NCBI GenBank assembly: GCA_905178155.1
Contig: CAJINV010000016.1
Location: 372,001 to 436,000 of the forward strand
Direction: 5' to 3'
Length of the DNA: 64,000 nucleotides
DNA from: Amoebophrya sp. A120
Lineage: Eukaryota > Protista > Dinoflagellata
Shown: positions 1,385 to 60,774 of the stretch, one piece after another
How positions within the stretch are numbered: the first letter of the stretch is position 1
Layout of the letters: each line of letters begins with the position of its first letter
Program-made: the position numbers and the translations under genes
The notes under the pieces: model-generated
The model's database searches: none
Told to the model about the DNA's origin: nothing
Seen by the model: only the letters and a program-made list of their open reading frames with translations

Positions 1385-4300
1385 TCAGTGCGTATCAACT
1401 CCAAAAATGTCTGGGTCTGGAAGATTGCCACGTTTGTCATGCAGGTTTTCTATGGCCCATAAAGTTTAGAATGCAGCACCTAGCATGACAAATTCTGTGA
1501 GATCTCTATCATGCCTATCATGCATGAGAAATTGCCTCTCAACTTGGTAAAAAAGGGCGGCTGTTGGTAATCACGCAACACAGATTTTTTGCACGATTCA
1601 GATTTAGCATGACAAGTTGCAACCTTCCAGACCCAGACATATTTGCATTTCATAGTGCGTCACGTTTTCCACCGTTAAGCTCCCCTTTCCGTCCACACTG
1701 AACATGAGGTCAATGTGGTGGTGCGATGTTTCTTCGATAGAGACGGTGGTGAGAGGCGTCCCGTCGGCGGCCACCACTTCAATGTTGAAGGAACCTGATA
1801 TACAATATTTTCTAGGTAGGTGAGGTTCACCATAGTCTCGATCCACGCAACATCACACCAGTGAAGACCTTGTGATGGGCCGCCGTCGTCCATGCAAAAA
1901 TTCAACGATTCGGAATAAGTATAATCAGGTGATGTTCTTTGTCATGCAACAAACATGAAATGCAGCTATGGTACCTGGTGCGCATGCGAAGCTCTCCTTC
2001 TGGCTGACGGGCACCGGAACGCCCTTGTGCAAAACTGGGAAAAATGACTTTGCGTTCCCCTTCTTCACGGAAATGCCGACGGCTTGAGACAGAGCGCTAC
2101 CCTCCATGGCGATACCTGTTCCGTAGAAGTTGTATGGTGGTAGTTTTATTATTTTGATGTCACATCTTTAGAAAATTTGTCATGCGAAAGTCACATTGAC
2201 ATTGCCAGCATGTCAAGCGAAATTCACATCGCAAGCATGTTTTGTCTTGCATAAAAGTCCCTGCTCTACAATAATTGTCCGAAAATTTACCTGGCGTATC
2301 GTCGTCGTCGGCTGGCTCGACATTTCCTTTCAGCTCTGCAGAAACCACCAACTCCCCCTCGTCCGTTGCTCCCATGTTGAGCAATACGTCCGCTTGTATT
2401 GCCGCGCCCATCGCGACCACCTCCTCGGCAAGCAAATCGGTCTCGCCCTTGAGCTATCAAATGCAAAAGTGTCTGGTGTTTTGTCTGGAAACAAGACCTT
2501 GGTACAGCACGGGGAAGAGAACGACTTGAACTTTTTGAAGAAAGAAAAGAAAAGAGAACTACGTGGATGCACTATGTAGAGAGAGATTAAAACATGCTAT
2601 TATGTCCACCGGTGGAACTAACTACTGCTACTTATACCGGGTCTGGAGCAAAGCACCTTGTCATGCTAAATCTGAATCATGTGAAAATCTGTGTTGCATG
2701 ATTACCAAAAGCTGTCCACTTTTGACCTAGTCGAGAGGTGGTTTCTCATGCAGGATAGGCATGATAGAACTCTCACAGAATCTGTCATGCTATGTCCTAC
2801 ATACCAGATCTCATGTGTCATGGAAAACCTGCATGACATGTCTGGCACTCTTCCAGACCCAGACACTTTTGCAGTTGATATGAGCTCCTTCGCTTTGCTG
2901 GCGCTGAAGGCCTCGGCAATCGTTTGGCTCACAACGGGGATGTTGCACCCGCCCCCGATGCACAAATACTCGTTGATCTTTGTTGAGGACGAAGTTGTAC
3001 TTGCGGCGACCTTCTCTTGCACTTCCTCGAGCATCTCCTTCAGTTGGTCAATAACGTTCTTCTCCTCGTCTTCCTTCTTCAGCATCTCCTCAAATTGCTC
3101 CCTGGTCACTTGTATGCATTGCAAATATCGATCTGGGGCTGGAATAAACTTGTGATGCGGAACGCGAAAGATTGGAACTGCGCTTGTGGGTGCAGACAAG
3201 CATGATAAGTTCTGAGAACGGCTGCTCGTCATGCGTATCCCGCATGACAAGCTGCGCTTTCGCATGACAAGAGAGTTCTCACCGCGTCTGTTGATGTCGG
3301 TCATGCAATGCAGATTTTCCACGACACACCCATGCAAGATAAGCATTGTAAGTTCAACCTTTCGAGACCCAGAAGATCGATATATTTGCAATGCATAACT
3401 TGCGTGAAGAAGTCCACATCGCCCAGCAATGCTTCCACCTCAATGGTGGCCCGCTTCGACACCGTGAGGGCCTTCTTCGCCTTTTCACAGGCTTCCTTGA
3501 GTCGCAGCATCGCTCGCTCCTCCTTCTTCAGCTGCAGGGCCGCCTTCGGGTCTTTCCTCTTCAAATCCTTGACGCAGTAGTCAAAGAGCGTTTCGTCCAT
3601 CAGCTTGCAGCATCAACTGCAAATATGTCTGGGTCTGGAAGAATGAAAGTTTGTCATGCAGCTTGCCTCGCGTGACTCTTGAATCTGTCATGCATGAGCA
3701 GGAAAGCAGCAGTCTCTTACTTGTCATGCAAAAACGGAGTTTGTCATGCGGGAAGCGAAACACATAGGAGCTCAGAAACTTGTCATGCGTGGCTGCGTAA
3801 GAACGCAGTGCGCCCACCGTGCACAAACTAGCATCACAAGTTGTTTCCAGACCCAGACATATTTGCAGTTCATATGCAGCCGAGGGACCCGGACCCCACC
3901 GAGGTCACCGGTCGGAAAATGCCGGAGTTTTATCCTGTGCAAAAGTATCGCACTCGTAGTAATTGCAGTCATGCAGTACAAATCTCTCTCTTAAGGCAAA
4001 TCAGCATTACAAATTTTATTTTTCATGCTGAGGAGATTTGAAATGCATTTATACGAGTACGATACTTCTTTTGCAATTCATAAGTTTTTGTTCACCGTGA
4101 AAACCGAGCAATCGATATCCTGAGGAAAAACGTCCCCACCCTCCAATACTTGTCATGCAAATCCGCAAGCCTAGAATGTCTCTCATGTGTAGCCCTATGA
4201 GAGCCATTAGCTAAAAATGCTATCTGGGAGTTTGTCATGCTAGAATCCGAATCAGCTAGTCAATTCGTCATGCGGTTATTTCACTAGGTAAACAGGATTA

Positions 4301-7063
4301 CACTGCGAGCCAGAACTTGTCATGCTCGACAGCCAAAACTTGTGGATGTGTGTAGCAGATTCCCCATCTTGACTATGAGGCGAGCAGGACGGTTTTACAT
4401 AGGATAATCGAAGGTAGACGCGCCGAGATCCACAACGGCCACTATCCTGAGTAAAAACGTCCCCACGACCCCATAGTTGTCATGCAGATGTGCGACTACA
4501 GGAAGATTTGTAATGCGCATCTCCATGAGAGGCATTTTCAATCGCGTTTTGGGATTTGTAATGCTGTAAACGGGATGAGCAGATGGATTTGTGATGCCGC
4601 TGCACTGGCTAAACTGCACTACACTACGGACTGCAACTTGTGATGCGTGACTCCCAAAACTCCTAGGTTTGTGTTGCAAAATCCCCATCCCGACTCTCAT
4701 GTGGGGACGTTTTTGAACGGGATAGCGACGGTTTTTTCCTCATCCTTGACCGCCGCCAGACCGTTCCCGCCCGCCGTTGCGGCTGATCCTTGCTGTGCTG
4801 CCTGTATCCTGGGGAAATAAGACGTCCCCAGTAGCTGCATCGTCCCACATTTTTTGTAGATGCAAATTATAATATCCATGAGAAGCAATTTCGCAGTCAT
4901 GCTCGTGGTCGAATTTTTTGTCGTGTTCGTGTAAAATACTATCAGGAGAAAAAAATCGGTTTGATGTGATGAAGATGCGCCTGCACTAGCGAAACACGAT
5001 CAAAATACTCTCCGAGTCCAAGCGGCTTGAATGACCACTCGAAGAGTATTTTTTGACAGGCTTCATTTTGCCTGGCAGTGCTCCCGTACTAGTTCTTCGT
5101 CTTGAAGACTTTATGACTATGACTACTGGGGAGGACCACCACGTGGTCGTTTTTTTTACGCGGGATAGAAGCTGCTCCACTCACGCTGCTGACATTGGGT
5201 GCTGCCATGCCCGGAATCAAGCGGTGGGCGAGGTAGGCCGGGGTGACGTCCAAGCCGTGGGCGATGAGCGCTGCGCACGGTTCCTTCAGTAGTCGCATCA
5301 CCTTCAACTGCGTCGCGCTGTTCTCGTGGCCCCAGTTCGGGCAGGACTCGCAGCAGGCCTTGAGCAACTCCGCCTTCTCGTCCGAATAGTGGGATGGCAC
5401 GGTCAAGACGCAGTGCGTGACTTTATGGAAGTGTCAGGATCGAAATCGTCAAAGTTGAAATAGTTTGTAAAAAGCGACTCTATTGCAGGGGATGCAAGGA
5501 AGGCGGATTATAGTCCAGGTAAGGGTCAAGTATTGGGCTGCTGACTAGCATGGCAGAAGGCAGCGCTTTTGCTCTAAACCGCATGACAGATTCGCTTCTA
5601 GGACGGGGAAAATTTGTCATGCGCCGACTACAAACTGTGGGTCTAACTGGCAACGATTTTGCGCATCACAAATTTTTCGACTTTGTCAATTTCGATTCTG
5701 ACACTTCCTTAGACTTCCTCCCCGAGGTACAGGCTCGCGGTCTCCCGGACTTTGGCGAAGTATGAACTGTAAAAGTATCGCACTCTATGTATTGCAATCA
5801 TGCATTACAACTCTTTTTCTTAAAATAAATCAGCATTACAAATTTTCTTTCTCATGCTGAGGAAATTTGTAATGCATTTATACGAGTACGATACTTTTCC
5901 CCAGGATACGAAGACGAGAGAGGCGATGTCTTCGAGGGGAACCGACGCCTCTTCCCACGCGAATTTGATGGCACAGGATTTGCTGGAAGAGGAGGCCTCG
6001 ACGATCTGGGTTTTTGAAAAATGTGGAGACGTACACGTAGGTATTTATAATCAAAATGGCTTTTATTGATGATGTAGTCGTGCAGTCATGATTCTGTATA
6101 AAGAAATACATCCATTCTGTGGTGGCGTTCAAGTTGGTCCAGCACCTCTACTTGCATGCAAGCCAAGAAGTACTAGACAAGTTCAAGAGGTGTCACGATC
6201 ATGCCGAATAAAGCGGAGAAGCTGCAATGGCTCACATTTAATAGTACTTACCTCAAGATGCTTCAACGCTTTGCTTTCTGCGATGTCTTCTTGGGTAATC
6301 TCGTCGTCGAACGGCTGGCCCAGCAGCTTCTTGAAGTCCCGCACCGTACCTTTGTTTGTTGTTGTTCCACCGTGTAAGTAAAAAACGTAGTTGTGCTTGC
6401 GCTGGCGCTTGATAGATGACAAGACATGGAGATCATGCAGCAAGGAAGATTTAACGTGGAGAGGATAACATGTGTCTGTATCTATCCCCACGACCACCTG
6501 GTCAACATGCAACGATGCAAAAATTCATCATCAAATCACGATGATGAGGTTTAGTTCTTCTGCAGCTACACAATATATTTATAGCTAGTACCTGGTAAAT
6601 TTCTCTCCTTCTGATTGTAAGCCGCATCCCCGACGGTGATTGTGCTACTGCCATCCGCTGCTTTGACGTAAGAAACGCAGACGTTTGTGCTTCGGTTTCC
6701 CATTTCGTTGGGGATCACTTCCTATCAAATGTAAAAATGTCTGGGTCTGGAAGAATGGAAGGCTTGTCATGCTTGTCTGGCATAACCCATGATGCTTCTA
6801 ATGGATGACCCAGCATCACAGATTTTTGGAAAGCTTCCTGATGCCATTTCCGCATGACACATGCCCTCCTCGCGTAGCACAAATGTGGCTCCTCTTGTTG
6901 GTCATGCAATACAGATTTTTTTAGAGTCCAAAGTTAGCATCACAAGTTCCAACTTTCCAGACCCAGACATTTTTACATTTGATACTTCCGTCTGACCGTT
7001 CTTCGACATGGCCACGACGCACGTGGTCGCGCCAAAATCGATACCGATACCGTAAGTCGACAT
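1385..7063 (-). CDS. atypical Hsp70-family protein (HSPA14/Ssz1-like), ~585 aa, 16 exons
   Basis: Spliced motifs GIGIDFGAT, VLTVP..LLKEPCAALIAHGLD, VVDLGASTFD, NSGIFR, RLKEACEKAKKAL, EEVVAMGAAIQA; short C-terminus without lid/EEVD. 11 introners plus GT-AG introns 1795-1974, 2116-2290, 6006-6251, 6350-6591; spliced length 1758 nt. Hsp70 family is secure, HSPA14 subfamily is by recalled similarity. Confidence 0.85.
1393..1654. mobile_element. introner family A
   Basis: TIR TATCAA..AAAATGTCTGGGTCTGGAAG; direct repeat gtgcg/gtgcg. Confidence 0.9.
2455..2880. mobile_element. introner family A with ~160-bp internal insertion
   Basis: Family A TIRs; direct repeat tgagc/tgagc. Confidence 0.85.
3113..3397. 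mobile_element. introner family A (diverged)
   Basis: Diverged family A TIRs; direct repeat acttg/acttg; removal joins FFTQV-TREQFEE. Confidence 0.9.
3611..3874. mobile_element. introner family A
   Basis: Family A TIRs (left end CATC); direct repeat tgcag/tgcag. Confidence 0.9.
3931..4082. mobile_element. introner family B
   Basis: TIR TATCCTGTGCAAAAGTATCG.ACTCGTA; direct repeat agttt/agttt. Confidence 0.9.
4116..4406. mobile_element. introner family C (diverged)
   Basis: TIR TATCCTGAG.AAAAACGTCC; direct repeat atcga/atcga. Confidence 0.85.
4443..4724. mobile_element. introner family C
   Basis: Family C TIRs; direct repeat gccac/gcgac. Confidence 0.9.
4805..5167. mobile_element. highly degenerate introner (C-like ends)
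   Basis: Residual TIR TATCCTGGGGAAATAAGACG / CGTTTTTTTTACGCGGGATA; direct repeat lost, but removing element plus 5 nt restores the Hsp70 frame. Confidence 0.6.
5424..5711. mobile_element. introner family I (singleton)
   Basis: ~37-bp TIR TATGGAAGTGTCAGGATCGAAAT; direct repeat gactt/gactt. Confidence 0.9.
5761..5908. mobile_element. introner family B
   Basis: Family B TIRs; direct repeat cgaag/cgaag. Confidence 0.9.
6723..6984. mobile_element. introner family A
   Basis: Near-perfect TIR TATCAAATGTAAAAATGTCTGGGTCTGGAA; direct repeat cttcc/cttcc. Confidence 0.95.
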
Positions 7064-7382
7064 TTTTGTCCAGTACTGAAATAAGTAATCGCTACAACTT
7101 GGGACGAAAGCCACAAAAAAATTCACTGGCGTAGCGCTTTTGCTGCAGCTGCAAGATGAATAAATACAGTTTGAATAAATGCAAGGGTTCGCTATGTTGT
7201 ACCAAAAATCGATGTTAGTTTATTCTCCGCAGCTGAATAAACGAAATTGTACGTGTTCTTAGTGGCCGCGTGCAAATGACGATCGAACGGGAAAAAGTAG
7301 GTGTAGTAAGTGGTGAATTTATAGCTAAAAAAAGAAACTTCGTCCTCTCCTGCGAAGTTTCAAGCACCTACGTGAGCCTGTT

Positions 7383-8368: not shown

Positions 8369-9818
8369 TCAGTAAAACCCCCCTTTTCCCATGCCCTGCC
8401 CTTTCCCGGACTTGCCGATGGTTTGCGCATACATTCCCATCTGGCGCTGCGCTCTATCCTGTGCAAAAGTATCGCACTCGTATAATTGCAATCATGCATT
8501 ACAAATTCTTTTTTTTAGGTAAATCCGCATTACAAATTTTATTTCTCATGCTGAGGGAGTTTGTCATGCATTTATACGAGCACGATACTTTTGCAGTTCA
8601 TACGCTCGCGTCTGAGCAGATTCCGGGCCTTGGTTCAGCACGTGTGCCTATGTATTGGAAATATGTCTGGGTCTGGGTGGAAAGTTGTATTAATGCCAAA
8701 AGTGAATGATTGATATGCGCACGCGCACGGCAATGCGCAGCCACGCATGACAAATTTTTTGGACTGCTATGTGATTCGTTTTGCGCATGACAGACTGCGT
8801 TTTTGCATGACAGACAAGAGGCCCTTATTTACATTTTCCACCTCCCCTCGCATTTTTCCAGAGTTTGGTTTCGCAGTCAAAGTCATGTGAGACAAGCATG
8901 ACAAACTTCTTGCACTCTTCCAGACCCAGACCTTCGATATTTGCATTTGATAATGCCCGGGAGTGCTTCGCCACCGTGGCCTGGTTTCGTGCGCTCGCCC
9001 GAACCATCGCGTTTTGCAGCTGTCCCATCGCGTTATTAATGTCGCTGGTGCCCTTGCTGTGGGTGACGCCCTTGGTGTACTGAATGTTTGCGGCAGCCTA
9101 TGGAGAGAAAAAAGTTTGTCACAGACACAGTCACAGTCACTATCTTGGAGGGTTTGCATTACAAATTTTCTCAGCATCACAAACTTTCCTTGTATTGCAG
9201 AAACACTAGGGAAATCCCTAATGAAGTTTGGCTTTGATGCATTTTTACGCATGACAAACAATTTTGTATTGCAAGAATGCGCATGAGTGATCGTGACGAA
9301 CTTTTTTTCTTTGATACTGCCTGCTCCAGCGCCAGGTCCCGCGTGATTTGTTCCCGCTGCAGGTGAATGTCGCGCGTCATCTCGTGGTAGCCACCCCACG
9401 ACCTCCGTTTGCGCTTCTCCTTTACATCTGCGTGGTGCTCGTCCCAGCGTCGGGCGTTCTCTATACCCTCGTGGTTGTACCGGGCCCACGCCTCGCGGTC
9501 CCGGTGCTGTTGCTTCTTTTTGTACAGAACCACGGCAACCACCACGCCGGCGAGTACCAGGAAAAGCAAAACATAGAACAGCACGTTATGGTCCGTGTTG
9601 CTGAATTGGAGCAACCGCTGCAGAAATTGCTCTTCCAAAGGGGTGGTTCTGGTTATCGAGTTCAATATGATTTCATCGTGTACTCCTGGAGACTTGTTTT
9701 CATAGACCCGGACCGCAGGCAATGCGTCGCTATAGTGGATGTCCACAAGCTGCTTAATAGTCGCAGAAGCTTCTTGCAGCGGAGAGGAGCTGCTGCCACG
9801 ATTGTCAAGCATTTGCAT
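8369..9818 (-). CDS. hypothetical single-pass membrane protein, ~254 aa
   Basis: TM segment VLFYVLLFLVLAGVVVAVVLY followed by KKK; three introners removed give 765 nt ending GKSGKGQGMGKGGFY*. Confidence 0.75.
8455..8602. mobile_element. introner family B
   Basis: Family B TIRs; direct repeat cgctc/cgctc. Confidence 0.9.
8649..8952. mobile_element. introner family A
   Basis: Family A TIRs; direct repeat gtgcc/atgcc. Confidence 0.85.
9099..9316. mobile_element. introner family J (singleton)
   Basis: TIR TATGGAGAGAAAAAAGTTTGTCAC / GTGACGAACTTTTTTTCTTTGATA; direct repeat cagcc/ctgcc. Confidence 0.85.
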
Positions 9819-11280: not shown

Positions 11281-14200
11281 TCAGTAAAACCCATCCCGTC
11301 CAGCTTGGTGAAGTTCCCGTTGCTGGTTGTAAATGTGCTCCACTCGGTCATAGCTCATGGGCGGGCGCACGACTATCCCAGAGAAAAAAGCTGGCAGGGG
11401 ATATTTGTAATGCAAAAATAAATAGACAGAAAAACTTGCCATGGGCGGCCCCCTAGCATGCACATGCTGCTTCGGATATGCAATGCAGATTTTTATTTTG
11501 TGTATTTATTTTTGCATTACAAATATGAGCTGGCAGCTTTTTTCTCTGGGATAACGACGCCCGTCTGCGCACTGGCGTCCGCCTCTCGTTTCGCAGCTAT
11601 CGCAAGAAAAAAGTGTTTCACTGTGAACTTGTGATGCATAGAATGGAACAGCACAGAACTATTTGTCTTGCTACACCTGCAAGACCTTGACTCTTTAGGG
11701 GTGTTTTCCCTTTGGAAGCGCGCATGGCAAATTTTCTGTGTCATGTGTAACAAACTTGTGATGCAGATCTTTCAGAGTCATTACAGTGAAACAGTTTTTT
11801 CGTGGGATAGCAGCCCGCATCACGTCAATCTGCGGCCCCCCGTGCGCCTGAAAGGCGCCCCGGAGCGACCACCCCCCGCCCCCGCCGCGCATCGAACTGG
11901 TGTTGTGGAGGATGTGGTCGTTCGCATTGGAGTATCCACAGGAAAAATCCCCCCACCTCTCACATCAAAAACGAAATTTGTGCTGCTGTATTTGAGTAAA
12001 CACAAATCGACTTTTAAGTATTGCCAGAAGGCCAAGAGACGCAGTTGCTCCCTCCTTTGCAGGCAATTTGTCATGCTGTTTTCCATTTCCATTCGGATTT
12101 GCCTCCGCCTCCTGTCGTGCTGAAGACGCACGGCTTTCCTACGCCACCCAGCACTACAGTCCGCTTCTTTTGCCACCTTCTAGCATGACAGCATGACTTG
12201 TGGTCTCAAATCATGCTACACAAATCTCCGCTTTAGTATGGGGAGGGGGGAATTTTCCTTTTGATATGGAGGTGCCGGCCTCCCATATGGATTGCAAAAG
12301 TATCGTACTCGTATAAATGCATTACAAATTTCTTCAGCATGAGAAATAAAATTTGTAATGCTGATTTGCCTTGATAAAGAAATTTGTAATGCAAGACCTG
12401 CATTTATACGAGTACGATACTTTTGCACAGGATATCCCAGTCGTGGTACCGATCTTCAAAGCCGTAGTGCCCGCGGCCTTCCAGTATCCTGAGTAAAAAC
12501 GTACCCACACCAGAGTCAATTTGGGGTTTTGCAACACAAACCTAGGACTTTTTGGAGTCACGCATGACAAGTTGCACTCCGTAGTGTAGTGCAGGGTAGC
12601 AAGTGCAGCTGCATCACAGATCCATCTGCTTATCCTGTTCATGGCATCACAAATTCCAAAACACGACTGAAAATGTGTACCGTGTGTATGCGCATCACAA
12701 ATGTCCTTGTCATTGCAAATCTGCATGACAACTCTGGGGTGGGAACGTTTTTCCTCAGGATATCCAGGCGCGCGTTAGCCTTGTCTTGCATCTTATCAAA
12801 TGTAAAAATCCCTGGATGTCTGGAAACTTGTGATGTTGCGTGGCGTCTCATGATGAGGCCACAAGTGCTGGCTCAGCATGACAAGTTTCTGAGCTTCTAG
12901 GCGTTGCCTATGCTGCATGACAAACTGCGTTTCTGCACCACAGAAGGGTGGGGCTCTTGGTTAACGTGCATGACAAATTTAAGAGTCATGCCAGACAAGC
13001 ATGACAAACATGCATTCTTCCAGACCCAGACATTTTTGCATTGGATACATCTTGTCCACTTGCCGCTGCGGTTTCTTCTTCGCCCGGGGTGTCCAACTGG
13101 CAATGTTGGTGTCCTCGTAGTAGTGCTCCCCGTGATCGCCGTGGTGCGTCACGGTTTGAAAGGTCGAAGTGGTCACCTGCCCTCCGCCCTTGCCGTGTTT
13201 GTTCAGCACCGCGTTTTTCTTTTGTTGCACGCGCTCCGAGCGCGGCGTCGCAGTTGCTCCACCGTGGTTGCTGTACCCAGCAGCTCCGGGGTAGGAACGG
13301 GTAGATGACATTTCGGAGGAAATCGAGCGGCTTGAGTGGGGAGTAGAGTCGTACCCGTGATGATCGCTGTACCCGGAGTGATGCGAATGGTGCCCGCTGT
13401 GATTGTGCGAATAGTCAGAGTGGTAGCCCTCGTGATCATCGTATTCTTCGTCCCATTCACCATCATGATCGTGGTAGCCGTAGCCTTCGTGCTCGTCATA
13501 ATGAGAATGTTCATCGTAATAGGAAGATTCGTCGCCATGGTGCGAGTGGTCTCCGTAGTGCGAATCTTCCCCGTAGTTGTGGTGGTCACTGTAGTGCGAT
13601 CCGTGGTCCGACCACCCTTCTTCGTAATGGCCGTGCTCGCCTCCGCCGTGGTGGTGGTTATGGCGTTCGCAAACGTTACATTCTCAACTGTTACATGGAT
13701 TTGTAATGCAAGAACAGCAACAGTGAAAGTGGCAATATTGCAGCTTTCGCATCACAGATTTTCCACAGATCATGATGCGGCTTAGCCCTTCGAAAATTTG
13801 TCATGCTAAGCACCTTGATCAAGTGGAGGCTGATGGCAGTTTTGCATGACAAATCCGTGTAACAGTTGAGAATGTAACAGTTGAGAACGCCATAGTGGTA
13901 GTGCTGGTCGTGATAGTTGCCCGCTTCGCCCTCAGCCGAAACGGTCTTATTGATCCGGCTTGTTTTATATGAACTGCAAAAGTATCGTACTCGTATAAAT
14001 GCATCACAAATTTCCTCAGCATGAAAAATGAAATTTGTAATGCGGATTTAGCTTAATGTAATGCATGATTGCAATACGAGTACGATACTTTTGCACAGGA
14101 TATTTTACGGGGTGTTTGCAGTTGCACCTCCGCCATCTCGAGGGCAACGTCATTGGCAGCGCTCATCGTCCTATGCATTGCAAAAATGCCTGGGTCTGGA

Positions 14201-16109: not shown

Positions 16110-19100
16110 TCACACGATATGATCGTCTCCTTCGTGCCGGTTACTATTAGTTCCTTGATTTTCATCCGTGATCTCTCCTCTCCCCCCACCAGGCCGTCCA
16201 TCTGAACCTGATTGCACGGAGCGATTGGAAGTGCTGCTGCCCACCACCTCCTCCCGATGTTCTTCGCCGCTGTTCTTCAATATCGGAAAAATTGTCCTGG
16301 AGGCCCCGCCCCGCCGAGGGTAGTTGCTACTGGTTCTCCTCGTCGTGTGACGTGGTTGTGCCGTTGGGTCATAGATTTTTTCCTGCTGCTGCTCACCTGC
16401 ATTAGGAGCAGAACTTCCAGCAGGATCTTCAACTACATCTCCGCGTTCGCTTCTTCTATTTCCAGCCGCTAGTGGTGCACCAGTTCTTTCCACAACACCC
16501 CCAGGGGCCGACGTACTGTTCATGTTCTGCTCAAGATCATCATCATCTTCATCATGATCCCCAAGTTGTACTAAAGCGCTGGCAGCACCTGCTCCCGCCG
16601 CGGGCGAATTCTCCATTGGAATCGGTGACAGCAACCCGAAGAGAACAGAGCGGTCCTGATGACGGTCCTGCGGATCATTCTTGAACAGGATTCCCGATTC
16701 CTGTCCAAACACCAAGTCATCTTCTTCTTGTGAGCTGTCGTTCTTTTCGTGTTCTTTTGGTTGACGGCCAGGAACGAGCGCTGCAGCGGAAGTAGATCCT
16801 CTTCGTGCAACATCTTTTTTATCTCCGCTTGATGATGTTCGTGTTCCCCTCACGTCTTCTAGCTGGATCCCGCTTTGGTCTTGATCGTGCGGCGTTCCTA
16901 TGTGAAAGAACCTCTTCGCGGCGGCCATCGGGGGCGACCTGGACCGGATGTACTTTTTCCTGTTGTCATCTTCAACAACGCTTATGCTTCGCTGTTCTCC
17001 TTTGTGCCGGTCGGCGGGAGCAGGTGCAGTCTGGATATGAACTGCAAAAGTATCGCACTCGTATAAATGCATTTTTCTCCGCATGAGAAATACAATTTGC
17101 CATGCTGATTCACTTTAAGTAATGCAAGAATTGCATTTAGATTTATACGAGTACGATACTTTTGCACAGGATACTGGAAGACATCACGCAGCGAAGGGAA
17201 GAAAGAATCGTCATCGTCAAGATCATCGACGTAGTCGTGGTGGTTCCATGGTGGCTTATTCATTTCCATCCGTTGTTGAAGGTCGTTACTTCGTCTTTGT
17301 TGTGCTCGTGGTCTATTGGAGACGTAGTTTTTCCTGGTCTGCTCCTCCGCCTCCTGGTAAAAGCGAAACGAGGAACTACTGCTGCTCGCGTATCAAAAGA
17401 AAAAATCCCCCCTCCCCATATCGAAAACGAAATTTGTGATGCTGTATTTGAGTACACAAGGCCTTACAGCATTACAAATCGCCTGCATGACGTCCCGGAC
17501 AGCCTGCACTTGCCTTGTTGCAAGACAGACGCGATGTGTGATCACAAATCTGCATCGCAAATTTTCAGATGGACGCGCTTGCAATATGGGGAGGAGAGAT
17601 TTTTCCTCACAATATCGCGGCACCACCGCCGCCTGGTGGCGCCCCGGGGTTTGTTTGCGCCTTTTGGTTTGTTATTTCGCTGTCAAGATGAACATCACCC
17701 TCGTTCAATATTTCTTCTTCTTCCTCATTCGAAGCGGAGGTCTGCCGGCTTTTCTCCGCCCGACTCATCGCCGTCCGTCGGCCGATGCTCAGTCCGCGCA
17801 CTTTCGTTTGCTCTTGTTGTGCAGCTGCAGCTGTGCCATCACTCGTGACTGTAGGTAGATTACGATCAGAAGGCCCACGCAGAATGCCTAGCCGCTCCTT
17901 GTCTCCATCCGCGGATATGATCGAGGCCTTCGAAATTTCGGTTCCACGCGGATCGTCTACACTGCTCTATCAAATGTAAAAATGTCTGGGTCTGGAAGAA
18001 TGCAACTTGTGATGCTGCATCCATTTGGATTCCAAAAAAAATCTGTATTGCATGAGTACCAAAGGGAATGCATTTTTTGCTACCTTCGTATCGTATCGCT
18101 TTGACCTTTGACTCCTGTCAGGGCGGCGTTAGAACAGATTTAGCCTCTGCCAATACCGTGGCGTTAGAACAGATTTAGCCTCTGCCAATACCCCTAGGTG
18201 GACACACGTTCCACGTCCTACCTTGAGAAGGCATTTGTCATGCGGAATAGGCATCAAGAAGCCCTCAAAAATCTGTATTGCTAGTGTATGCATCACCGAC
18301 ATCATGGCTCATGCAAAACGTGCATGACAAGTGTCAGAATCTACTTCCAGAGGACCCAGACACTTTATTTACAGTTGATATGCTAGCTCCGCGGCTAGCA
18401 ACACTAGGACCATTATCTCTTCTTAAAAGACTACCGCTGCTCCCCTCTCGTCCTGCTCTGTTTAGGACTTTCTTGTTGTTTCCGTTTAATATTTTTGCAC
18501 CCGCGGACGAGGTCTCATAATTCCTAAAAATCCTGCCATCTTCTGCACCGACGTCCAGCACTTCTCCTTCGTCCCCACGGTCGTCCGCTTTCTGCTGTGC
18601 TGCGGCTCCCGCGTCTTTCGTTTGCGCTTGATATATCGCGAGGAAAAATCCCCCCTCCCCATCTTGGAAGCATGTCCTTCCGAAAATTTGTGATGCAGAT
18701 TTGTGATCCTGTCTGTCTTGCCAGAAGGCAAACCCAGAGAGTCCGCCACGATATGCCGGCGGTTTGTAATGCTGCAAGGCCTACAACAGGGTAGACGTCT
18801 GCCATGCTAGACCTCTACACCAAAAGGCCTCCCCTGAGGCTTGCGATCTGCGCGCAATGCTTTCCTGCAAGACAAATGTGATTTGTGTACACAAATCCCG
18901 CATCACAGATTTCCTTTTTGATATGGGGAGGGGTGATTTTTCATTTTGATATGGTAGTTCTTTTTCTTACTTTCCAACGCCCGCATGGACAGTTGCTTCC
19001 GAGATGAACTTTTCGTGCTCAGAGAGTTCTTGTTTTGCGTGTTCTGTTGAGAGCGCTCGTTTCTACTACTTCCCTGCTTGTTCGAGGACGAGGTCGCTGT

Positions 19101-40500: not shown

Positions 40501-43500
40501 GATTCCGTGAAATAATCTATCCCGCCCGGAGGAGTTTTATTCGCCGATCCACCACTTCGCTGTGGTGAAGCTGAAGAAGAGCTACTTCTAGAACCACCGC
40601 TAGTACTCCCACCACTCTTTGTTCCCCTTTATCCTGTGCAAAAGCATCGCACTCGTAGTAATTGCATTCATGCATTACAAATCTTTTTCTTGACGTAAAT
40701 CCGCATTAGAAATTCCATTTCCCATGCTGAGGAAGTTTGTAATGCAGCTACTACTAGTACCATGCTTTTGCAGTTCATACCCCTGCACTCACGACAATGT
40801 CCGGCAACTCCAACCCGAGCGTGCACAATCGGCCGCGAGGCTTCCCCAGCCTTAACCTCAGCTCAAACTTCTGCAGCTCCGTGAAAATTGCGTAGTTCTC
40901 TTTGTTGTCGGCCTGTTCTATCCCCGTGAAACTCCGGTTCAGCCGCCGCGAGTAGGTGGTTTCCGGGAGAAATCCGGGCCGCGGGATCTTCGCGTTAGGT
41001 GCTGGATAATTACTTGATGTAGTGTAGTTTGCGCCTGGTTGTTGTACACCGCGCGACGAACTGGAACTTGCTGGCCCGGTGCCGACTCTTGGACCACCAC
41101 TTCCGGAAGCTCCTGCTGCAGCTGATGCTCCGGAACTGCCCGCCGCCTGTTCAGCCGCCACACTACCACTTCCGGACTTCGTGTTGCACCGGGACAGTAT
41201 CACGGACAGACACTCGATGCTCCTGGGGCACAAATCCAGCACCACTGGATACGGCGCGACCTGCAGCTTCGCCTCCTTTTTATGAATATTGATGGAGAAG
41301 GCGGAAGGGTATGAATGGTCAGCACTGCCGGAACTATTTCCACCGGAATTATACCCGAAAAACCGCGCGTTCATCGACTTCACAGCGGACGGGGTGCTAC
41401 TGACAGATGAAGATAACGACGGAACTTCCTCGTTGGAGGAAGAAGTGGAGGAGGAGAGCGATTTGGTTTTCTTCAAATAATTCGTCCCGCTGTCACTGTC
41501 CTGATTTATCGCTAGAAAAAACTGTTTCACTGTAAACTTGTGATGCATAGCACGGAACGCAAATGCGTTTGTCTTTCTACACATGCAAGACATTGGATTT
41601 TTAGCTGTGTTTTCCCTTAGAAAGCACGCATGCCAAGTTTTCTTTGTCATGTGTGACAAACTTGTGATGCAAATCTTGCAAAATCATCACAGTGAAACAC
41701 TTTTTTCGTGCGATATGATTGCTCTCGGTGGTATTGAGCTCGATTTCCGTGTCGGTTTTGATTGTATCGGACAACGAACTATCAAGTGTAAAAATGTCGG
41801 GGTCTGGAAGGTTGCAACTTGTCATGCTGATTTTGGATTCTAAAAAAATCTGTATTACATGAGCAGCAAAGAGAGTCCAAGTTTTGCTACATGGAAAGAG
41901 CATTTGTCATGCGGTATAGGCATCAGGAAGCCCTCACAAAATCTGTGATGCTAGGGCATGCATCACAGACATCAGGAGTCATGCAAAATATGCATGACAA
42001 ACCTGGCATTCTTCCAGACCCAGACATTTTTACATTTGATAAGAACCTGTACTGGATGAACTATTCGTCGCATTCAATCCTGGGATCAAGTTACTTTCAC
42101 CCTTTTTCCCGATATCCCTGTCCCTGACCGGGTCTCTCCCACATTCCAAAATCCGTTTTCTCCCGTCCTTCGTTCCGTCGCAAAACGTCAGCCGCTGCAG
42201 ATTCCCGACCCAATCTCCCCGGCGCGGTTTGGAAGACTCCGGCATCACGATCCGCATGTCTTCGAGCTGTTCTGGTTCAGGGTTGAGGGAAGATTTGGAA
42301 TTGGAAAGTTCGTTGGGCGGGGTTGTCGGCGACACACCTTGTTGTTCTTCTGTCACCAATCTCGGACTGCCGCCAAACATCCGGCCGAAAAAGCCAGGTG
42401 CGGCGGCCGGTGCAGGGTTTTTTTCTTTCGTGTAGTTTTCCTCACCTGCAGAAGGGTCAGCGTCGGATATTTCCTTATCCTTACCCACCTCACGCCCGTC
42501 TACTCTGTTGCTTGCTCTACTTTCACTCCCATCCGTTGCTTGCGCGGAGGTGGAGGCTGGGTGTTCGCCGCTCAAAATTTGCGTTCTTGGCTCCAATCCT
42601 GTCTGCACCACGCCAAAAGAGTTCATTGTAGTCGCAGTCGCAGCCCCTTGCATAACGACCTGATCCCGCACCAACGCACGCATTTTCTCCGCTAGTGTTT
42701 CCACGGATTGATCAGCGAAAAACTCGATTTCCAAATCCACCACGGACGTTTCCAGATTGAAATCATTCTCATCTAATTCCTCGTCGGTTGTTTCCTCTAA
42801 AATGGATTCCTCCTTTGATTTTTTCGTACCAAGCGACTCCGACTCTATCGTCTCCGTGTCGACCGATTGCACGTCGGGGGAGAGCGGAACCGGGCGGGAA
42901 GTGTCGTAGGTGGTTTGGGGATCATGATCATTTACTACATGATCGACGTCTTTATTTGTAGTGGCTGCTGCTGGTGCAGAGGAGGGGGAAGCTCCTTCGG
43001 CATCATTTTGACCTCCGGCAACCGAAGATAGCCGCTCGGTAAGTTGCTCGGCGATATTTTGAGGTGCGGACGCTAATGTCGCCTGGGCTGTCTCTGCGGG
43101 TTTGAGATTCATTTGATCATGTTGTTCGTCTCGTCTCTGATGCGTAGTACTCGTTGCCGACGAGCTAGAGGACGACGAAGCTCCTGCTTGAGCGGATCCT
43201 GCTGGTGGCCTGTCGAATCCAAGAAACGGCAGTGGTATGTTGTCCTCACTGTCGTGGTCTCCAGAAATTATTGGTGCGCCACCAGCTGCTGATGTCGATG
43301 TCGTTCCACTTTTTGTTACAGAGCCGAAGTTCGCATCGTCTTCGATTTTAATCTCGCCGAACACCGTGGTCGTTGGCAGGTTTAGGTTGGTGCTGCTTGG
43401 GCTGCTGGTCGGGAACTCCGGTATGGAAGTGCCGAGAATAGCGGTGCTCTTATTTTGACTCGTGGACCCAGTTTCTTTTCACAGCCGAGTGCATCCCACT

Positions 43501-46500
43501 TTGTGGAGAATTTCTGGAGCTCATGGCCCAGACACTCCAGAAATTCGAAACAGGTCGTGGAACAGAAAAAGACGTTGTTTTGTTTTCACAAAAGCAAGAA
43601 AGCAAGTTTTTTTTCTCCACGAGGGTACGGAATTCTGGAGAATTTCTGGAGCTCATGGCCCAGACACTCCAGAAATTCGAAACAGGTCGTGGAACAGAAA
43701 AAGACGTTGTTTTGTTTTCACAAAAGCAAGAAAGCAAGTTTTTTTTCTCCACGAGGGTACGGAATTTCTGGAGAATTTCTGGAGCTCACGGTCCAGCCAC
43801 TCCAGAAATTCGAAACAGCTCGCGGAACAGAAAAAAACGTTGTTTTCTTTTCACAAAAGCAAGAAACCAAGTTTCTTCTTCCACGATGGTACGGAATTTC
43901 TGGAGAATTTCTGGAGCTCATGGTCCAGCCACTCCAGAAATTCGAAACAGCTCGTGGAACAGAAAAAGACGTTGTTTTCTTTTCACAAAAGCAAGACAGT
44001 AGTTTTTTTTCTCCACGAGGGTACGAAATTTCTGGAGATGAGTTTCTAGAACTCGTAGTCTAGACACTCCAGAAATTTAAAACAGGCTGTGGAAGAGAAA
44101 GAGAGGAACGTTTCTTGTTCATGTTCTGCGACATCCGAGTACAACCACTAAGTACGTAAGAGGACCGCTTAACAAGAGCACCTAAGATTTCTCCCATTCC
44201 ATACCGACGAGCTCTCCGCTGCTCGACGAGCATGACTCTAACCCGTTATCCCTGTCTTCCATCATGCTTTGGAACATGGCCGCCTCGTTATGAACTGCAA
44301 AAGAATCGTACTCGTATAAATGCATTACAAATTTTCTCAGCATAAGTAATAAAATTTGTCATGCTGATTTACTTTAAGAAAAAAATTTGTAATGCAAGAC
44401 TTGCATTTATACGAATGCGATACTTTTGCAATGCATACTCGTCCGCATCCTGCAAATTCACACGTGGTCCAGCAGCATTTGAAGTCGCAGTTGTAGCCGG
44501 GCTGCTGTTCGACGCTGTTGAACTAGCAGCACCAACACCAGTCCCTTCACTTATCACCGACTGAAACATGTCCGCCCCGTAAGAATCACTCTGCTCCAAG
44601 GGCGGTGGAAAAGATTGTTGCAACTCAACTGGAGACGCAAACACCGGTTTTGTTGTTGTACCCGCCAGGACACTCGCTTTCGTGCTTTCGTTTAAAACAG
44701 AATGAAACATCGCGTTTTCCTCCTCCTCTTCCCGGTTGACGATGGTTCTGAATTTTTGCAGATCCGCTTGCACGGTTTCCGACAGATTACCGGCCGGGTT
44801 TTTGAATTCCTTTTCCAAGGGGAATCGGTACCGGATGTTCTGGTCCGTGTTCGCATGCTGTTCGAGAAAAACTTCGTCCGGCTCCCGGGCGACCCGAAAG
44901 TTGAAAAACGCGTCAATTGAAGAAAGCTCCGCCGTTATCGAGGTTTGATTCGCCGAATGAACTTGTTCAGAATTAGAGCCAGTTTGATGGTGTTGGCCGT
45001 AGTTGTGCTGATTTGAAGATGTCGGGGAAAAGGCGCCAGATCTACTAGACGACGGTCCATTTATTTTTGCAGCAGCTGCGTCAACACCTTCGTCTTGCCG
45101 GTCTGCGATACAGACTCCCATTCTCCCAATGTTCACCTCGTAGTTCGTGTAGGGTAAGACGCTGTTAATCGGCGGCGGCCCGTTCAACACCTTCCCGGAG
45201 CCGAATTCCAAGTGGTTCCACGGGTTGACGAACTGCACCCGCTCTGCCAAAACGAAGAAGTAGCTCTGTCGATCCACTTGTAGGTTGATTTTCAAGCAAC
45301 GGGTGAAGGAAGTTGGTTGGTTGTTCTGCTTGTTGCTAGTATTTCCGGCATAATTATTACTCTTCATCTGATCAACATTGCCACCTGTTCCTTTCGAACT
45401 ACCGGTATCAAAACGAAAAATCCCCCCACCCCATATCGAGAAGGTATGTTTCCGGAGATTTGTGTTGCTGATTTGAGGCCACAAATCACACTTGTCTTGC
45501 AAGAAGACAAGGGCAGAAGCTTACGCCCCATTAGGGCAGCGATTTGTCATGCTGTTGGCCCTAAAAGTGAGCCGCTTGCCATGCTCCTGAACAACTGGAC
45601 CCATAGGCCCCTACCTAGCCTAGGAATCTGGCCAAAGTGCCTCTCTGCAATACAAACCTGATTTGTGTACACAAATCCAGCATCAGAAATTCCGTTTTGA
45701 TATGGGGAGGGGGGATTTTTCCCTTCGATAACCGGATTTTCTTCTTTTCTTCCCCTTCGCCAAAACTTTCGTTGCCGCGTGCACGTCTTGCTCGGATATC
45801 AGGTTGTTTGCGTTGTTGTTCATGCTGTTGCTCACGCCATCTTCCTCGCTGCAGTTGTCCTCCAAGATCGATTCTGTCTCAAACAGCGCGTACAGCTCGT
45901 ACCAAAAATTCCGGCTGGGTTTCGGCTCGATGAATGAGTGAAAAAGCTCCGCGTCCTGCTGCGCTTCTTTCGTTTGCAGGTAGTGCTTGTTTTTGTGCAG
46001 CTGCTGCTGGAGTCGTAATTGCTCCCGTAACGCGGACTGCTGGGAGCCGAACGTGAGGAACTCGGAAGATCTGCGCACGTTCCACAGGGACAGAATCGCG
46101 TGGAGACCCGCGATGTGGAGATCGACCTTGTAGATATTGCGTTGACGACACCATTGAGGAAGTTTCAGGCAAAGATTTTACTTGTTGCACATAACATTCC
46201 GATTCCGTTTATGATTATGCATGACAATGGCAAATAAATATGAAAACCAAAGAACAAACCTCCATTTCCATCTTCATATTCTCCCCATCTAGATTCTTCC
46301 GCACGACCAGCGACAGCGGCTCCGCTTTGTCGGTTCGCAAGATCAAATCTTCCTTCAGAACCGGTGCTCGGTCGAGAACCAGCGAGTCTGCGATGGCGTT
46401 TTCCTGAAAATTTGACGTTGATTTGGTCGGGACGAATTGAATCGCAACATCCGCAATCTGGATCCGACGCTCCTCCTCGCAAGTTGTGTCGGATACAGAT

Positions 46501-49500
46501 GAGTTTTTTTTCCTACTTCTTCCATCCCGGTTGATGTTTTATCCTGAGTAAAAACGTACCCACACCAGAGTCAGGATGGGGATTTTGCAACACAAACCTA
46601 GGAGTTTTGTGAGTCACGCATGACAAGTTGCGCTCTGCAGTGTAGTGCAGGTTAGCAAGTGCAGCGGCGTCACAGATTCGTCTGCTCATCGTGTTCACAG
46701 CATCACAAATTCCAAAACACAATTGGAAATGGCTCTCATGGGGATGCGCATTACAAGTCTTCCTGTCTTTGCAAATCTGCATTACAACTCTGGTGTGGGG
46801 ACGTTTTTACTCAGGATATGTTTCTTTCGGTGTTTCTTTGCGCGGAAGAATCGGCGAAAACCAAATATCAAATGTAAAAATGTCTGGGTCTGGAAGAATG
46901 CAACTTGTGATGCTGCATGTGGATTCCAAAAATATCTGTATTGCATGAGCACGAAAGGGAATGCGATTTTTGCTACGCGGAGAGGGCATTTGTCGTGCGG
47001 AACAGGCATCAAGATTCCCGCAAAACGTCTGTGATGCTAGGGCATGCATCACAGACATCATGGCTCATGCAAAGCGTGCATGACAAGTGTCGAAATCTTC
47101 CAGACCCAGACATTTTTGCAATGCATACCAAAGCAGAGGAAACAATGATCTGCAAGGCGTAGGGGTAGTAGGAGGGAGCACCTGTAGTTCTTGAGTTCTT
47201 GTTGTGTGATTTATTCCGTCGAAGTTGAGTACTTAGAAGCAAACGAAAAGAGAAAGTGAAAGACATTTGTGTTGCATGAAACTGAAAGTAACGACCAACA
47301 ATTAATACAAACGGCCATCCTGTACGACGTAGCCCCGACGAGAGTCTGCAAATCGATGAAAGTGCAAGAGTAAAGCTTCAAGCGATGATCATTCTTCCGC
47401 AGAAAGCTATTCTGCATGCTGCTGCGCACTTTGGGGGGGCGTTTGTAAAATTACAAACGGGCACCAGTGGCACAAGAAGGTGCAACAAACACGGCGGGAC
47501 TCCAGAAAATCCCAAAACATTGGCAGTCTACGCGAAAAATTGCCCAAATCACAATAAAAACACAATCCCGATGGCAGAGCGCGTTTTTCCTCGTTTACAA
47601 ACGGCCGTTTGTAAAATACGAACGGCCATCCTGTACAACGTAGCCCCGACGGCAGTCTGCAAATCGAGAAAAGTGAAAGAGTAAAGCTGCAAGCGATGAC
47701 CATTCTTCCGAAGAAAGCTATTCTGCATGGTGCTGCGCACTTTGGGGGGGCGTTTGTAAAATTACAAACGGGTGCCGGTGGCACAAGAAGGCGCAACAAA
47801 CACGAAGGGACTCCAGAAAATCCCAAAACATTGGCAGTCTACGCGAGAAGTTGCCCAAATCGCGATAAAAACACAATCCCGATGGCAGAGCGCGTTTTTC
47901 CTCGTTTACAGACGGCCGTTTGTAAAATACAAACGACCATCCTGTACGACGTAGCCCCGATGGGAATCTGTAAATCGATAAAAGTTCAAGAGTAAAGCTT
48001 CAAGCGATGGCCATTCTTCCGAAGAAAGCTATCCTGCGTGCTGCTGCGCACTTTGGGGGGGCGTTTGTAAAATTACAAACGGGCACCGGTGGCACAAGAA
48101 GGCGCAACAAACACGGCGGGATTCCAGGAAATCCCAGAACGTTTGCAGTCTACGCGAAAAATTGCCCAAATCACAAGAAAAACACAATCCCGATGGCAGG
48201 GCGCGTTTTTCCTCGTTAACAAACGGCCGTTTGTAAAATACAAACGGCCATCCTGCACGACGTAGCCCCGACGGGAGTCTGCAAATCCATGATGAAAGTG
48301 CAAGAGTAAAGCTTCAAGCGATGGCCATTCTTCCAAAGAAAGCTATCCTGCATGCTGCTGCGCACTTTGGGGGGGCGATTGTAAAAATACAAGAGAAAGT
48401 GACGCTGTGAGACCCAGAAATCAATGGATTCCGCTCGGGCAAGGTCGTTTAAGGTTTCCCGGGAAACCTTCGGCTTAGCTCGTGCTAAAGTGTGTTGCAA
48501 TGCAACCGAAAACGCGGCGCGCGCAAGGACTCCGCTGCTGTTTGTTTGCACAACCGCGCCGCGTCTGCGTTGCAGTCTCGTGCGCCCAGATCGCCACAGT
48601 CGGCTGCGGATTGCGAGCAACCTGGCGGCCCCGGCAAACCGGCGCACATTTTCGCAGAGGATCCCGCAGAGGATTCCGCAGAGGATTCCAAAATCCTCTC
48701 AGGAATCCTCTGGCCCAAGTTGAGCCGTCCCCCGCGCCCTTTCCCCGACGGCAGTGCCTCGATTTCGGGGGAGGATTCCGCAGAGGATTCCTGAGAGGAT
48801 TCCAAAATCCTCTCAGGAATCCTCTGGCCCAAGTTGCGCCGTCTCTCGCGCCCTTTCGCCGACGGCAGTGCCTCGATTTCGCGGGAGGATTCCACAGAGG
48901 ATTCCTCAGAGGATTCCAAAATCCTCTCAGGAATCCTCTGGCCCAAGTTGCGCCGTCTTCCGCGCCCTTTCCCCGGCGGCAGTGCCTCGATTTCGGGGGA
49001 GGATTCCACAGAGGATTCCGCAGAGGATTCCGCCGAGGATTCCAAAATCCTCTCAGGAATCCCGTGGCCCAAGTTGAGCCGTCTTCCGCGCCCTTACCCC
49101 GGCGGCACTACCTCGATTTCGCGAGAGGATTCCGCAGAGGATTCTGCAGAGGATTCCAAAATCCCCACCCTCAGGAATCCTCTGGCCCAAGTTGGCCCGT
49201 CCCTCGCGCCCTTTCCCCGACGGCACTGCCTCGATTCCGGGCGCGGATTCCACAGAGGATTCCGCAGAGGATTCCGAAATCCTCTCGGGAACCCTCTGGC
49301 CCAAGTTGAGCCGTCTTCCGCGCCCTTCCCCCGGCGGTATTGCCTCGATTTCGGAAGAGGATTCCTGAGAGGATTCCAAAATCCTCTCCGGAATCCTCCG
49401 GCCGGATTCGCGCCGTCCTTCGCGGTCTTTCCCCGCCGGCACAGCGTCGATTTCGGGCACCGCGGCAAACCGGCGCACATTTTGGAAGATTTTGGAACGC

Positions 49501-58684: not shown

Positions 58685-60774
58685 TTACACACCAAACACA
58701 ATCTCCTTTCCCTTCAGCAGGAAGTTCTGCGCTAGTGCGATCAAACCTAAAATGCAGCCTTTATGAATTGCAAAGATGTCTGGGTCTGGAAAAATGCAAC
58801 TTGTGATGCTATTTTTGGAATCTACAAAAATCTGTATTGCATGAGCAGCAAGAGGCGTCCAGTTTTTGCCCCGCGTTGGAGAGGGCATTTGTCATGCGGG
58901 ATAGGCATCAAGATACCCGCAAAAAAATTGTGATGCTGGGGCATACATCGCAGACATCACAGGCCATGCAAAATGTCCATGACAAGTCTTGCAATCTTCC
59001 AGACCCAGACACTTTTACAATCCATAGCCTTTCACAAACGACAAAACGCAGATGAAGGTGATGGAAATGGGTAGGACCAGGTAAAAGAAGGAAAAGAAGA
59101 AGGGCCAGAGCGGGCCAGCGGTTGTACTTGGTGGTGGCGACGATGTTGCACAAGATGACGCAGTGGGCATCTTTGTAAACAAAGGCAATGAGAAGCTGCT
59201 CGTCCTGCCTCGATCCCCACGATTATTCTCGAGCTCGTCTAGCTCGTCACACGGAGTTTGGTTCCCAGACCCAGCTTCTTCGATCGATTGCGCATTTTTC
59301 GCTATCGCTGCTTTCTTTTCCAGCACTTTCTCCACCGCCTGGCGAAATTCCCGGGTAGCGCAGACGACGACGAGATTGCGTTTCTCGTCCGCTTGCTTCT
59401 CCTCCGCCACTCGCTCTATCTGTTTCGCAAAATGTTCCGCCCGTTTTTCGATCAAGGTCGGCACCATGGCGAGGGGAAGAGGGAGTTTCGTGTCGGCACC
59501 GGCAGTTGTACTAGTTGTAGCATCTTTATTCACAGAGGCAGCTGCCGCGGTATTTACTTCGCCTAGTACCCCTACATCACCACTATTTGCACCTCCAGTA
59601 GCCATGCCACCAGAACCATCTCCAGCATCCGCATGTCGTGTGCAGCTCCTTTGCTCCTCCAGCAATCTCGTTCGCCGACTCACATCCGCCAGCCGCTGTT
59701 TTGCGTATTTCGCGTACTGAAAAAGCAACCAGGGCTTTAGGAACAGCAGTTTCGCCACGTCGTTCTGCGTTTGCCGGTACAGCTGGTCGCAGGGATGGAA
59801 GGTGGTCGTGGTGCTACTCGTAGTGGAAGTAGCACCAGAGTTCATCGTGTCCTCGCCCTTAGTATCGTTTGTAATATTTTTTGTCATGCTATTCTTCAAT
59901 TCCAGCATATGCTCTGCAAAAGTATCGTACTCGTACTAATTGCAATCATGCATGACAAATCTTGTTTTTTTAGCGAAATCAGCATTACAAATTTCATTTC
60001 TCCTTCTGGAAAAATCTGTAATGCTATTTCTACTAGTACGATACTTTTGCAATGCATACAGCAGATCTCGAGACAGAAGCCCGCCGTGCAGCGTGTTTAT
60101 CGCGTCCAACTGAGCTTGGTATTTTTCGCTGTTATGGACTGTAAAAATGTCTGGGTCTGGAAACTTGTGATGCTGGGTGGCGTATCATGAAGGGGCCACA
60201 AGTACTGGCTCAGCATGGCAAGCTTTTGAGCTTCTAGGTGTTGCCTCTTCTGCATGACAAGCTGCGTTTCTGCATGACAGCAAAATGGGGCTCTTGGGTA
60301 ACGTGCATGACAGATTTAAGAGTCATGCCAGACACGCACGACAAACATGTACTCTTCCAGACCCAGACATATTTGCAATGCATAGCTGTTCGCGTTCTGC
60401 AAATTCTTCCACCGGACCGGGCAAGTTTCGAGCAGGATGTGTGCTGGGTTGAGCGCAAGCACAGTCGTGGAAAGCCGCTGGGTACTAGTCTCTGAAGATG
60501 TTGTCCATCTTGATGTGGTGCTCCTCGTCAGAGAAAATGCTTCTGCGTCAAGAAACGTGATCCGATTGCCGCCGCTTCGTAATGTGCTGGTGCTTGTTGT
60601 CCCGAAAGTACGAGTTCTTCTTGTACTAGAGGGTGAACGTGAAGTAAAAGTCTCACGCCCTAATAAGTAGACACTCGAGCCGCATGTTCTGGAGCACAGT
60701 GCTGGTGATCTGCTTGAAGTGGAAAATGCATGCTGTGCTGATGCGGAGGAGGAGGTGCTCAAGAAGATCTTCAT
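58685..60774 (-). CDS. divergent TraB/TRABD-like membrane protein, ~468 aa, possibly mitochondrial
   Basis: Ser/Arg-rich, acid-poor N-terminus; NPAHILLETCPVR resembles TraB PDxVxVELCxxR; LIEKRAEHFAKQI and NLVVVC resemble TraB C-terminal motifs; C-terminal TM; three introners removed give 1407 nt. Confidence 0.55.
58762..59026. mobile_element. introner family A
   Basis: Family A TIRs; direct repeat gcctt/gcctt. Confidence 0.9.
59908..60058. mobile_element. introner family B
   Basis: Family B TIRs; direct repeat cagca/cagca. Confidence 0.9.
60133..60384. mobile_element. introner family A
   Basis: Family A TIRs; direct repeat gctgt/gctgt. Confidence 0.9.

Follow-up and report, generated by a model that had tools for sequence, protein, structure and literature searches.

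A stretch of the Amoebophrya sp. A120 genome (contig CAJINV010000016.1, positions 372,001 to 436,000; 64,000 nt, hereafter the window) raises the question of why many otherwise dissimilar insertions share one internal sequence motif, and what reads it. The window holds 65 elements with terminal inverted repeats (TIRs), 85-426 nt long with TAT...ATA ends, which are multicopy and non-coding. These are very likely the introner elements of A120 that the accessible text of PMC7789003 describes. Their motif, RYYTGTVWTGC, is probably a double-stranded DNA site for one mobilising protein common to the families, and that protein is likely a transposase of the integrase type (IS3EU/GingerRoot/Ginger-like) or its DNA-bending partner.

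The internal motif and its carriers

A preliminary description of this DNA noted TTTGT[CGA]ATGC as recurring in both orientations within element families and as sparse in exons and intergenic DNA, and both observations stand. The exact 10-mer occurs 44 times on the plus strand and 42 times on the minus strand. Its 9-mer, TTGT[CGA]ATGC, matches 138 times, compared with a mean of 2.13 and a maximum of 5 in dinucleotide shuffles; the concern raised there that the motif might not exceed a composition-matched background is not borne out. The elements contain 131 of these matches (8.3 per kb over 15,736 nt), GT-AG introns contain two, and the remaining 47,420 nt contain 5 (0.105 per kb), a small excess over the ~1.0 expected. 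Density in the elements is ~80-fold that of the rest of the window. Shuffling within the 63 elements first catalogued leaves 1.1 matches, versus 129 in the real sequences. Every family carries the 9-mer, which is present in 60 of the 65 elements, and the exact 10-mer is present in 49.

The motif is wider and looser than that description gives. An iterated profile converges on the 11-letter RYYTGTVWTGC with ~5 sites per element, amounting to 321 profile sites in the initial set of 63 elements and 307 internal sites within the 65-element span. T is excluded from the variable position, with 0 cases in the window and 4 versus 737 in a second genome introduced below. As a separate observation, internal TAT[CG] occurs in the elements at less than half the expected density (4.3 versus 10 per kb), and a T at the variable position would create TAT[CG].

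The catalogue came from a scan for inverted ends flanked by a duplication, in which [TC]AT was required and 5-bp matches were scored. This gave 65 calls, and the final catalogue again has 65, two calls having been dropped as false (10019-10687 and 56145-56837) and two elements added (4805-5167 and 5424-5711). An exact 5-bp target site duplication (TSD) flanks 51 of the 65; with a finder that scored 5-bp matches, no other duplication length from 3 to 9 appeared, and exact 6-bp duplications number 0 of 65. Clustering yields 11 families in the window, and the second genome adds one, giving 12.

The TIRs had been said to differ between families. Their interiors do, while all ends start with TAT or CAT (one with TAA) and most have AAA at positions 11-13. 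Across 126 ends, TAT stands at positions 1-3 in 97-100%, a figure partly built in by detection, and A at positions 11-13 in 92-95%; families 5, 6, and 7 deviate from AAA there. A CAT end occurs in four elements (3611, 25797, 32007, and 35822), in 4 of 4 cases at the 3' side of the transcript, giving a U-G first pair, and element 5424-5711 has an altered 5' end. The idea that the terminal 7 nt plus AAA form a degenerate motif copy was rejected as a general rule: it looks right for the two largest families, in which 20-31% of ends score above 4, and does not extend to the 12 families together (p = 0.28 by permutation).

The second genome came from scanning metagenomes with a single end pattern, which gave at least 167 loci; among the 80 matches listed, all are JACKZZ01 contigs. 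The end pattern of family 0 has zero matches in viral contigs. The set analysed, 154 loci totalling 684 kb, is biased to family 0 by the pattern chosen. It contains 354 distinct elements of the window families plus one extra family, and 329 of the 354 carry the 9-mer. Since one of its proteins is 95% identical to A120 protein CAD7969985.1, JACKZZ01 represents a close but distinct strain. The window families on these contigs link the window to A120 indirectly, and searches with a protein of the window gave no match.

Two elements of this genome are long (1104 nt at L019:505-1608 and 834 nt at L026:632-1465), with perfect duplications around unrelated, non-coding-looking interiors; there, the ends and a few sites are enough to delimit foreign DNA. 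Another, L015:1642-1752, is a near-palindromic element of 111 nt with a perfect 5-bp duplication, nested in a family 7 element immediately ahead of the first site of that element. Nothing in the 111 nt passes the site threshold, and the end of the nested element is similar to an inner TAT...AAA stretch of family 3 at about position 29, hinting that family 3 ends are composite.

Spacing and constraint of the sites

The arrangement of sites differs among families but follows common distances. The elements are listed below without assigned strand, with F and R giving site direction.

1393..60384: all 65 TIR elements, 85-426 nt, all within minus-strand genes
46866..47127: family 0 example, 253/262 nt, ends ...TCTGGGTCTGGAA; consensus sites 40F 72F 91R 130R 184R 215R, the first at 31 or 38-40; starts 1393, 3113, 3611, 6723, 8649, 12794, 14172, 24768, 25305, 26907, 36229, 41780, 46866, 57267, 58762, 60133
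2455-2880 and 17968-18380: longer variants of family 0
12286..12434: family 1 example, ~149 nt; consensus sites 34R 52R 66F 97F; starts 3931, 5761, 8455, 12286, 13968, 17036, 20339, 24492, 26199, 26677, 33954, 40630, 44289, 59908
41507..41715: family 2 example, ~209 nt; 30F and 61F from one end; starts 11598, 19796, 20081, 23751, 27619, 32007, 32635, 33177, 41507
45406..45730: family 3 example, 311/321 nt, C-tract ends; first site at 41-42 or 53; starts 11933, 17391, 18634, 22398, 24014, 25797, 37885, 45406, 57620
46540..46818: family 4 example, 279 nt; six same-direction sites at 30, 61, 109, 142, 191, and 222; starts 4116 and 4443 in one orientation, 12485, 27293, and 46540 in the opposite orientation
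4805..5167: old family 4 copy, ends kept, target duplication decayed, zero sites
35822..36084: family 5 member
21188-21272: shortest element, related to family 5, 85 nt, 2 sites
28779..29013: family 6 example, 235 nt; starts 13659, 21934, 28779
5424..5711: family 7 member, ends without AAA at 11-13, yet 4 sites
19270..19584: family 9 member, 5 sites
9099..9316: family 10 member, 5 sites
11374..11553: family 11 member, 30F and 61F from the left end

Spacing was evaluated on one consensus per family (12 families) against 5000 random placements with null sites at least 29 from the ends. Among same-direction pairs within 100 bp, 19 of 47 lie 31-33 bp apart, and such a pair is found in 20 of 22 subfamily consensuses. 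An inward-pointing site begins 17 of the 24 ends, at 30-31 (7), 38-41 (9), or 53 (1). Within a single family the first site can shift by one helical turn: it is at 41-42 (27 ends) or 53 (15) in family 3 and at 31 (47 ends) or 38-40 (249) in family 0. Distances between F and R sites fit 10.25 bp best. None of the 5000 placements (0/5000) reaches the observed spacings, and the result is robust to three thresholds and three family sets, the F-R term being weakest (p up to 0.05). The periodicity that the preliminary description proposed to look for is present as helical-turn-like spacing. Element lengths have no 10.5-bp phase, and a 9 of 9 orientation bias in family 3 proved to be an alignment artefact of a near-symmetric element.

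One explanation is that the motif is simply inherited from one ancestral element, with functionless decay or homogenisation among copies. Common ends and common module spacings do suggest a shared ancestor, and some C-tract ends are alike across families in an unmasked comparison. The families do not align end to end, a possibility that had been raised: their consensuses match one another over 14-47 nt stretches only. Once the sites and the 16 outermost nt are masked, BLAST gives zero matches at E < 0.01 between consensuses, a comparison in which the short pieces left by masking lower power. Spacer similarity is undetectable while cores and spacings persist.

Changes shared between copies reach 0.18 per cell in spacer, compared with 0.02-0.03 at motif positions T4, T9, G10, and C11. 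The V position is free (0.21), yet 389 of ~412 changes there are swaps between C, G, and A. Across 433 homology-derived copies, core divergence stays below half that of the spacer in each of five divergence bins and is close to that of the TAT/AAA ends, which makes core and ends about equally conserved. This contrast largely refutes inheritance alone, which is now scarcely credible. Comparison of the copies indicates that the motif is under constraint, and the families may still have a common ancestry. Strong enrichment, a constrained core, and fixed spacings across otherwise dissimilar families together support the earlier suggestion that the motif is a putative binding site of one trans factor.

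Removal from RNA and the probable reader of the motif

The elements are skipped in probable transcripts. Three features in minus-strand genes bear on this.

16113..30557, minus strand: host gene, 2949-codon frame after excision of 23 elements with one duplication copy each
2116..2290, minus strand: GT-AG intron, 3 profile sites, no intact TIR, perhaps an old element
1795..1974, minus strand: GT-AG intron, 1 strong site

A 9489-nt probable-RNA contig lacks all 23 elements of the host gene. Excising each element together with one duplication copy opens minus-strand frames of 2949 and 3011 codons, while other excision lengths give no more than 877. Overall, 43 of the 65 elements are skipped exactly at their length plus 5 in probable-RNA contigs, a count based on eight joints in the first gene (runs X3-X6) and exact contig arithmetic for 35 others. 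The RNA status of runs X3-X6 is a guess, none being on record as RNA; these runs also skip two GT-AG introns, and run X1 retains the elements. A GT-AG reading is possible for 0 of 64 elements. In run X9, a 2026 RNA run, more than 100 raw reads keep a family 0 end (window 17968-18016) with another flank, and represent an unspliced element in an abundant transcript from elsewhere; raw reads of X9 and X10 do not cover the exons of the window.

Could the motif act in the RNA, either as a word bound by a protein or through paired stems that bring the intron into a fold suited to its removal? In predicted folds, motif bases are paired in 71% of cases versus 59% for other inner bases, and 42% pair with another site; the inverted layout of sites alone explains this pairing. 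On the transcript, the motif shows no strand bias (162 forward versus 145 reverse), and the transcribed strand folds better in only 34 of 64 elements, i.e., no better. Mismatches in the ends show no excess of G-U over A-C (30 versus 35), and so no RNA signal. Family 4, with sites pointing one way only that cannot pair mutually, is nevertheless skipped in both orientations (4116 and 4443; 12485). The site-less copy at 4805-5167, which aligns to family 4 with a score of 54 versus up to 41 for shuffles, is skipped (368 nt) in four probable-RNA runs; it is one case, seen in contigs only, and does not speak to efficiency. Because of this strand-blindness, the behaviour of family 4, and the site-less copy, an RNA-level removal mark is disfavoured, and an action of the motif in RNA is highly improbable. 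Accordingly, of the two roles proposed in the preliminary description, subterminal transposase binding fits and a mark for removal in RNA does not.

On the reading in which a shared mobilising protein binds the motif as DNA, several DNA-binding domains would sit on one helix face, with paired sites three turns apart and the first site three, four, or five turns in from the end. Looping of short DNA requires help. The bound protein would wrap or loop the short element (85-330 bp) so that its two ends meet for cutting and insertion, and any sequence that keeps the ends and the site grammar could be mobilised. The existence of hundreds of unrelated-looking families is proposed to follow, because mobilisation would need only those two features. 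Excision from the transcript would be a different step, with the ends rather than the motif as its signal.

Several observations weigh against a mobilising protein as the reader. No transposase was recognised among 9 frames of the two long elements, none of which matches a Pfam family, or among 140 of 393 long frames of the second-genome loci. The accessible text of PMC7789003 likewise reports none found in A120 and argues against general mobilisation by transposases. No site reaches the threshold in 3 of 418 elements, one being the nested 111-nt element with its perfect duplication. For same-direction pairs, the periodogram has its maximum at 16 bp, which is a harmonic of 32; with the 30-34 class removed, the 10.5-bp signal has only p = 0.018, so the same-direction signal is mostly one distance. 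Outward-pointing sites have no phase (p = 0.19), and the spacing counts are not fully independent because families, and both ends of a family, may share ancestry. Of the 4 GT-AG introns considered, two of which were recognised from sequence, 2 also contain sites. Finally, changes private to single copies are low in the core, at 0.67-0.80 of spacer overall, 0.46 in window copies (22 changes), and 0.47 in the 9 closest pairs, which pure neutrality after insertion is not expected to give.

The last two points would suit a host protein that recognises the phased DNA motif and marks the region during transcription for an unusual splicing machinery, with mobility using the motif too or only tolerating it. 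All of the double-stranded DNA evidence fits such a mark equally well, and U1 snRNA as well as a transposase is reported missing from A120 in the accessible text of PMC7789003. Against it, the old family 4 copy is skipped with all six sites gone, and the 85-nt element is skipped exactly with 2 sites. Motif-less elements L032:2386-2653 and L061:15559-15897, whose interiors are unrecognisable, keep ends that match at 21/24 and 20/24, which suggests, from sequence comparison, that end pairing is kept for splicing. With only ~1-2% of copies sampled, the private changes may have been inherited from mobile ancestors; such ancestors and old elements, respectively, may explain the low private changes and the sites in GT-AG introns. 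A host mark of this kind is unlikely.

A general chromatin or architectural protein could instead bind the motif, with elements that recruit it being copied or tolerated more and the catalytic enzyme reading the ends only. A DNA-bending protein would be in keeping with the phasing. The left half of the motif resembles the CTTTGT-like word of the Sox HMG box, and its right half is like the beginning of the ATGCAAAT octamer, as given in the accessible text of PMC3367189, a likeness that is probably coincidence. The motif is almost missing from the rest of the window (5 matches in 47 kb), which is not what a general chromatin site would show, and its phase follows the element end. This explanation is decidedly improbable.

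The shared mobilising protein can be taken further, to one host-encoded or unrecognisably diverged protein that reads the phased sites, mobilises all A120 families in trans and also flags insertions during transcription for exact removal from RNA. So broad a role is quite doubtful; if true, the intron mark would be encoded in DNA, in a cell from which U1 snRNA is reported missing.

The window has further features. Tandem arrays with units of 311, 114, 102, 19-20, and 297 nt occupy the element-free block 47304-51553, a GC-rich stretch follows this block at ~53400-55600, and a 132-nt array is found at 43500-44104. Minus-strand frames at 51471-52301 and 56047-56877 are VPS13_N-like (below the curated cut-off) and leucine-rich repeat (LRR).

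Comparison with known systems

If one motif and spacing rule unites the families as clients of one machine, the motif offers a precise bait for catching that machine, with mutant controls in the form of T at the variable position and half-turn shifts. Motif and spacing would further permit homology-free annotation of elements and set a mobility signal inside the element apart from a likely splicing signal at its ends.

In the accessible text of PMC7789003, A120 introners are non-canonical introns of ~240 nt without coding capacity, in 1954 families, with inverted ends of TAT, 7 variable nt, and AAA, and 3-5 nt direct repeats. About 30,000 of them make up 17% of the genome (PMC7789003, PMC12130899, as far as accessible). 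The window elements share the TAT + 7 nt + AAA ends, the direct repeat at the border, and GT-AG-free removal; they differ in having a clean 5-bp duplication, and the published account gives ends and direct repeats only. No internal common motif or spacing rule is given in that text, nor do the words "subterminal" and "MEME" appear in it, although Figures S19-S25 could show one. The available portions of reviews PMC11282704 and PMC11453091 describe no internal common motif, nor does the accessible Amoebophrya introner and transposase literature, where theses, Repbase entries, and subscription papers could show one. Nor do the motif strings occur in 13 of the 14 files that supplement PMC12130899, although these may hold no element sequences.

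For most A120 families the superfamily is listed as unknown (PMC12130899, covering 41 of the 58 A120 rows of one supplement). Termini of the TA..TA type mark IS3EU and GingerRoot in the consulted parts of PMC10045372 and PMC6839031, and the elements of the window and the second genome share them. The usual TSD of these groups is 6 bp, unlike the 5 bp here. Ginger ends are TG..CA, in contrast to TA..TA here. A120 introner family 38 is listed as Ginger in the supplement of PMC12130899, with integrase-like remnants, and has the 5-bp TSD and TA/TA ends of the window elements.

Introns of Fritillaria borealis and euglenids, as outlined in the accessible text of PMC11282704, are likewise removed from RNA and resemble miniature inverted-repeat transposable elements (MITEs), with TIR and TSD; their described signals lie at the junctions, with no internal phased motif. 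The window elements, being short, non-coding, and multicopy with TIR and TSD, have the features of MITEs. Subterminal repeats of MITEs are bound cooperatively by transposases in Emigrant/Lemi1, and transposase-binding repeats of this type are also reported for hAT, CACTA, and Tc1/mariner (PMC1636448, accessible text). Repeated sites in both orientations within a non-autonomous element, placed relative to its ends, are common to Emigrant and the A120 elements. In those systems the repeat duplicates a portion of the TIR and serves a single family; here, the putative sites are not copies of the terminus in most families, fill the whole element, and span at least 12 families with differing TIR interiors. 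The elements are thus known, as is the kind of signal, and what appears to be new is the phased code that they hold in common.

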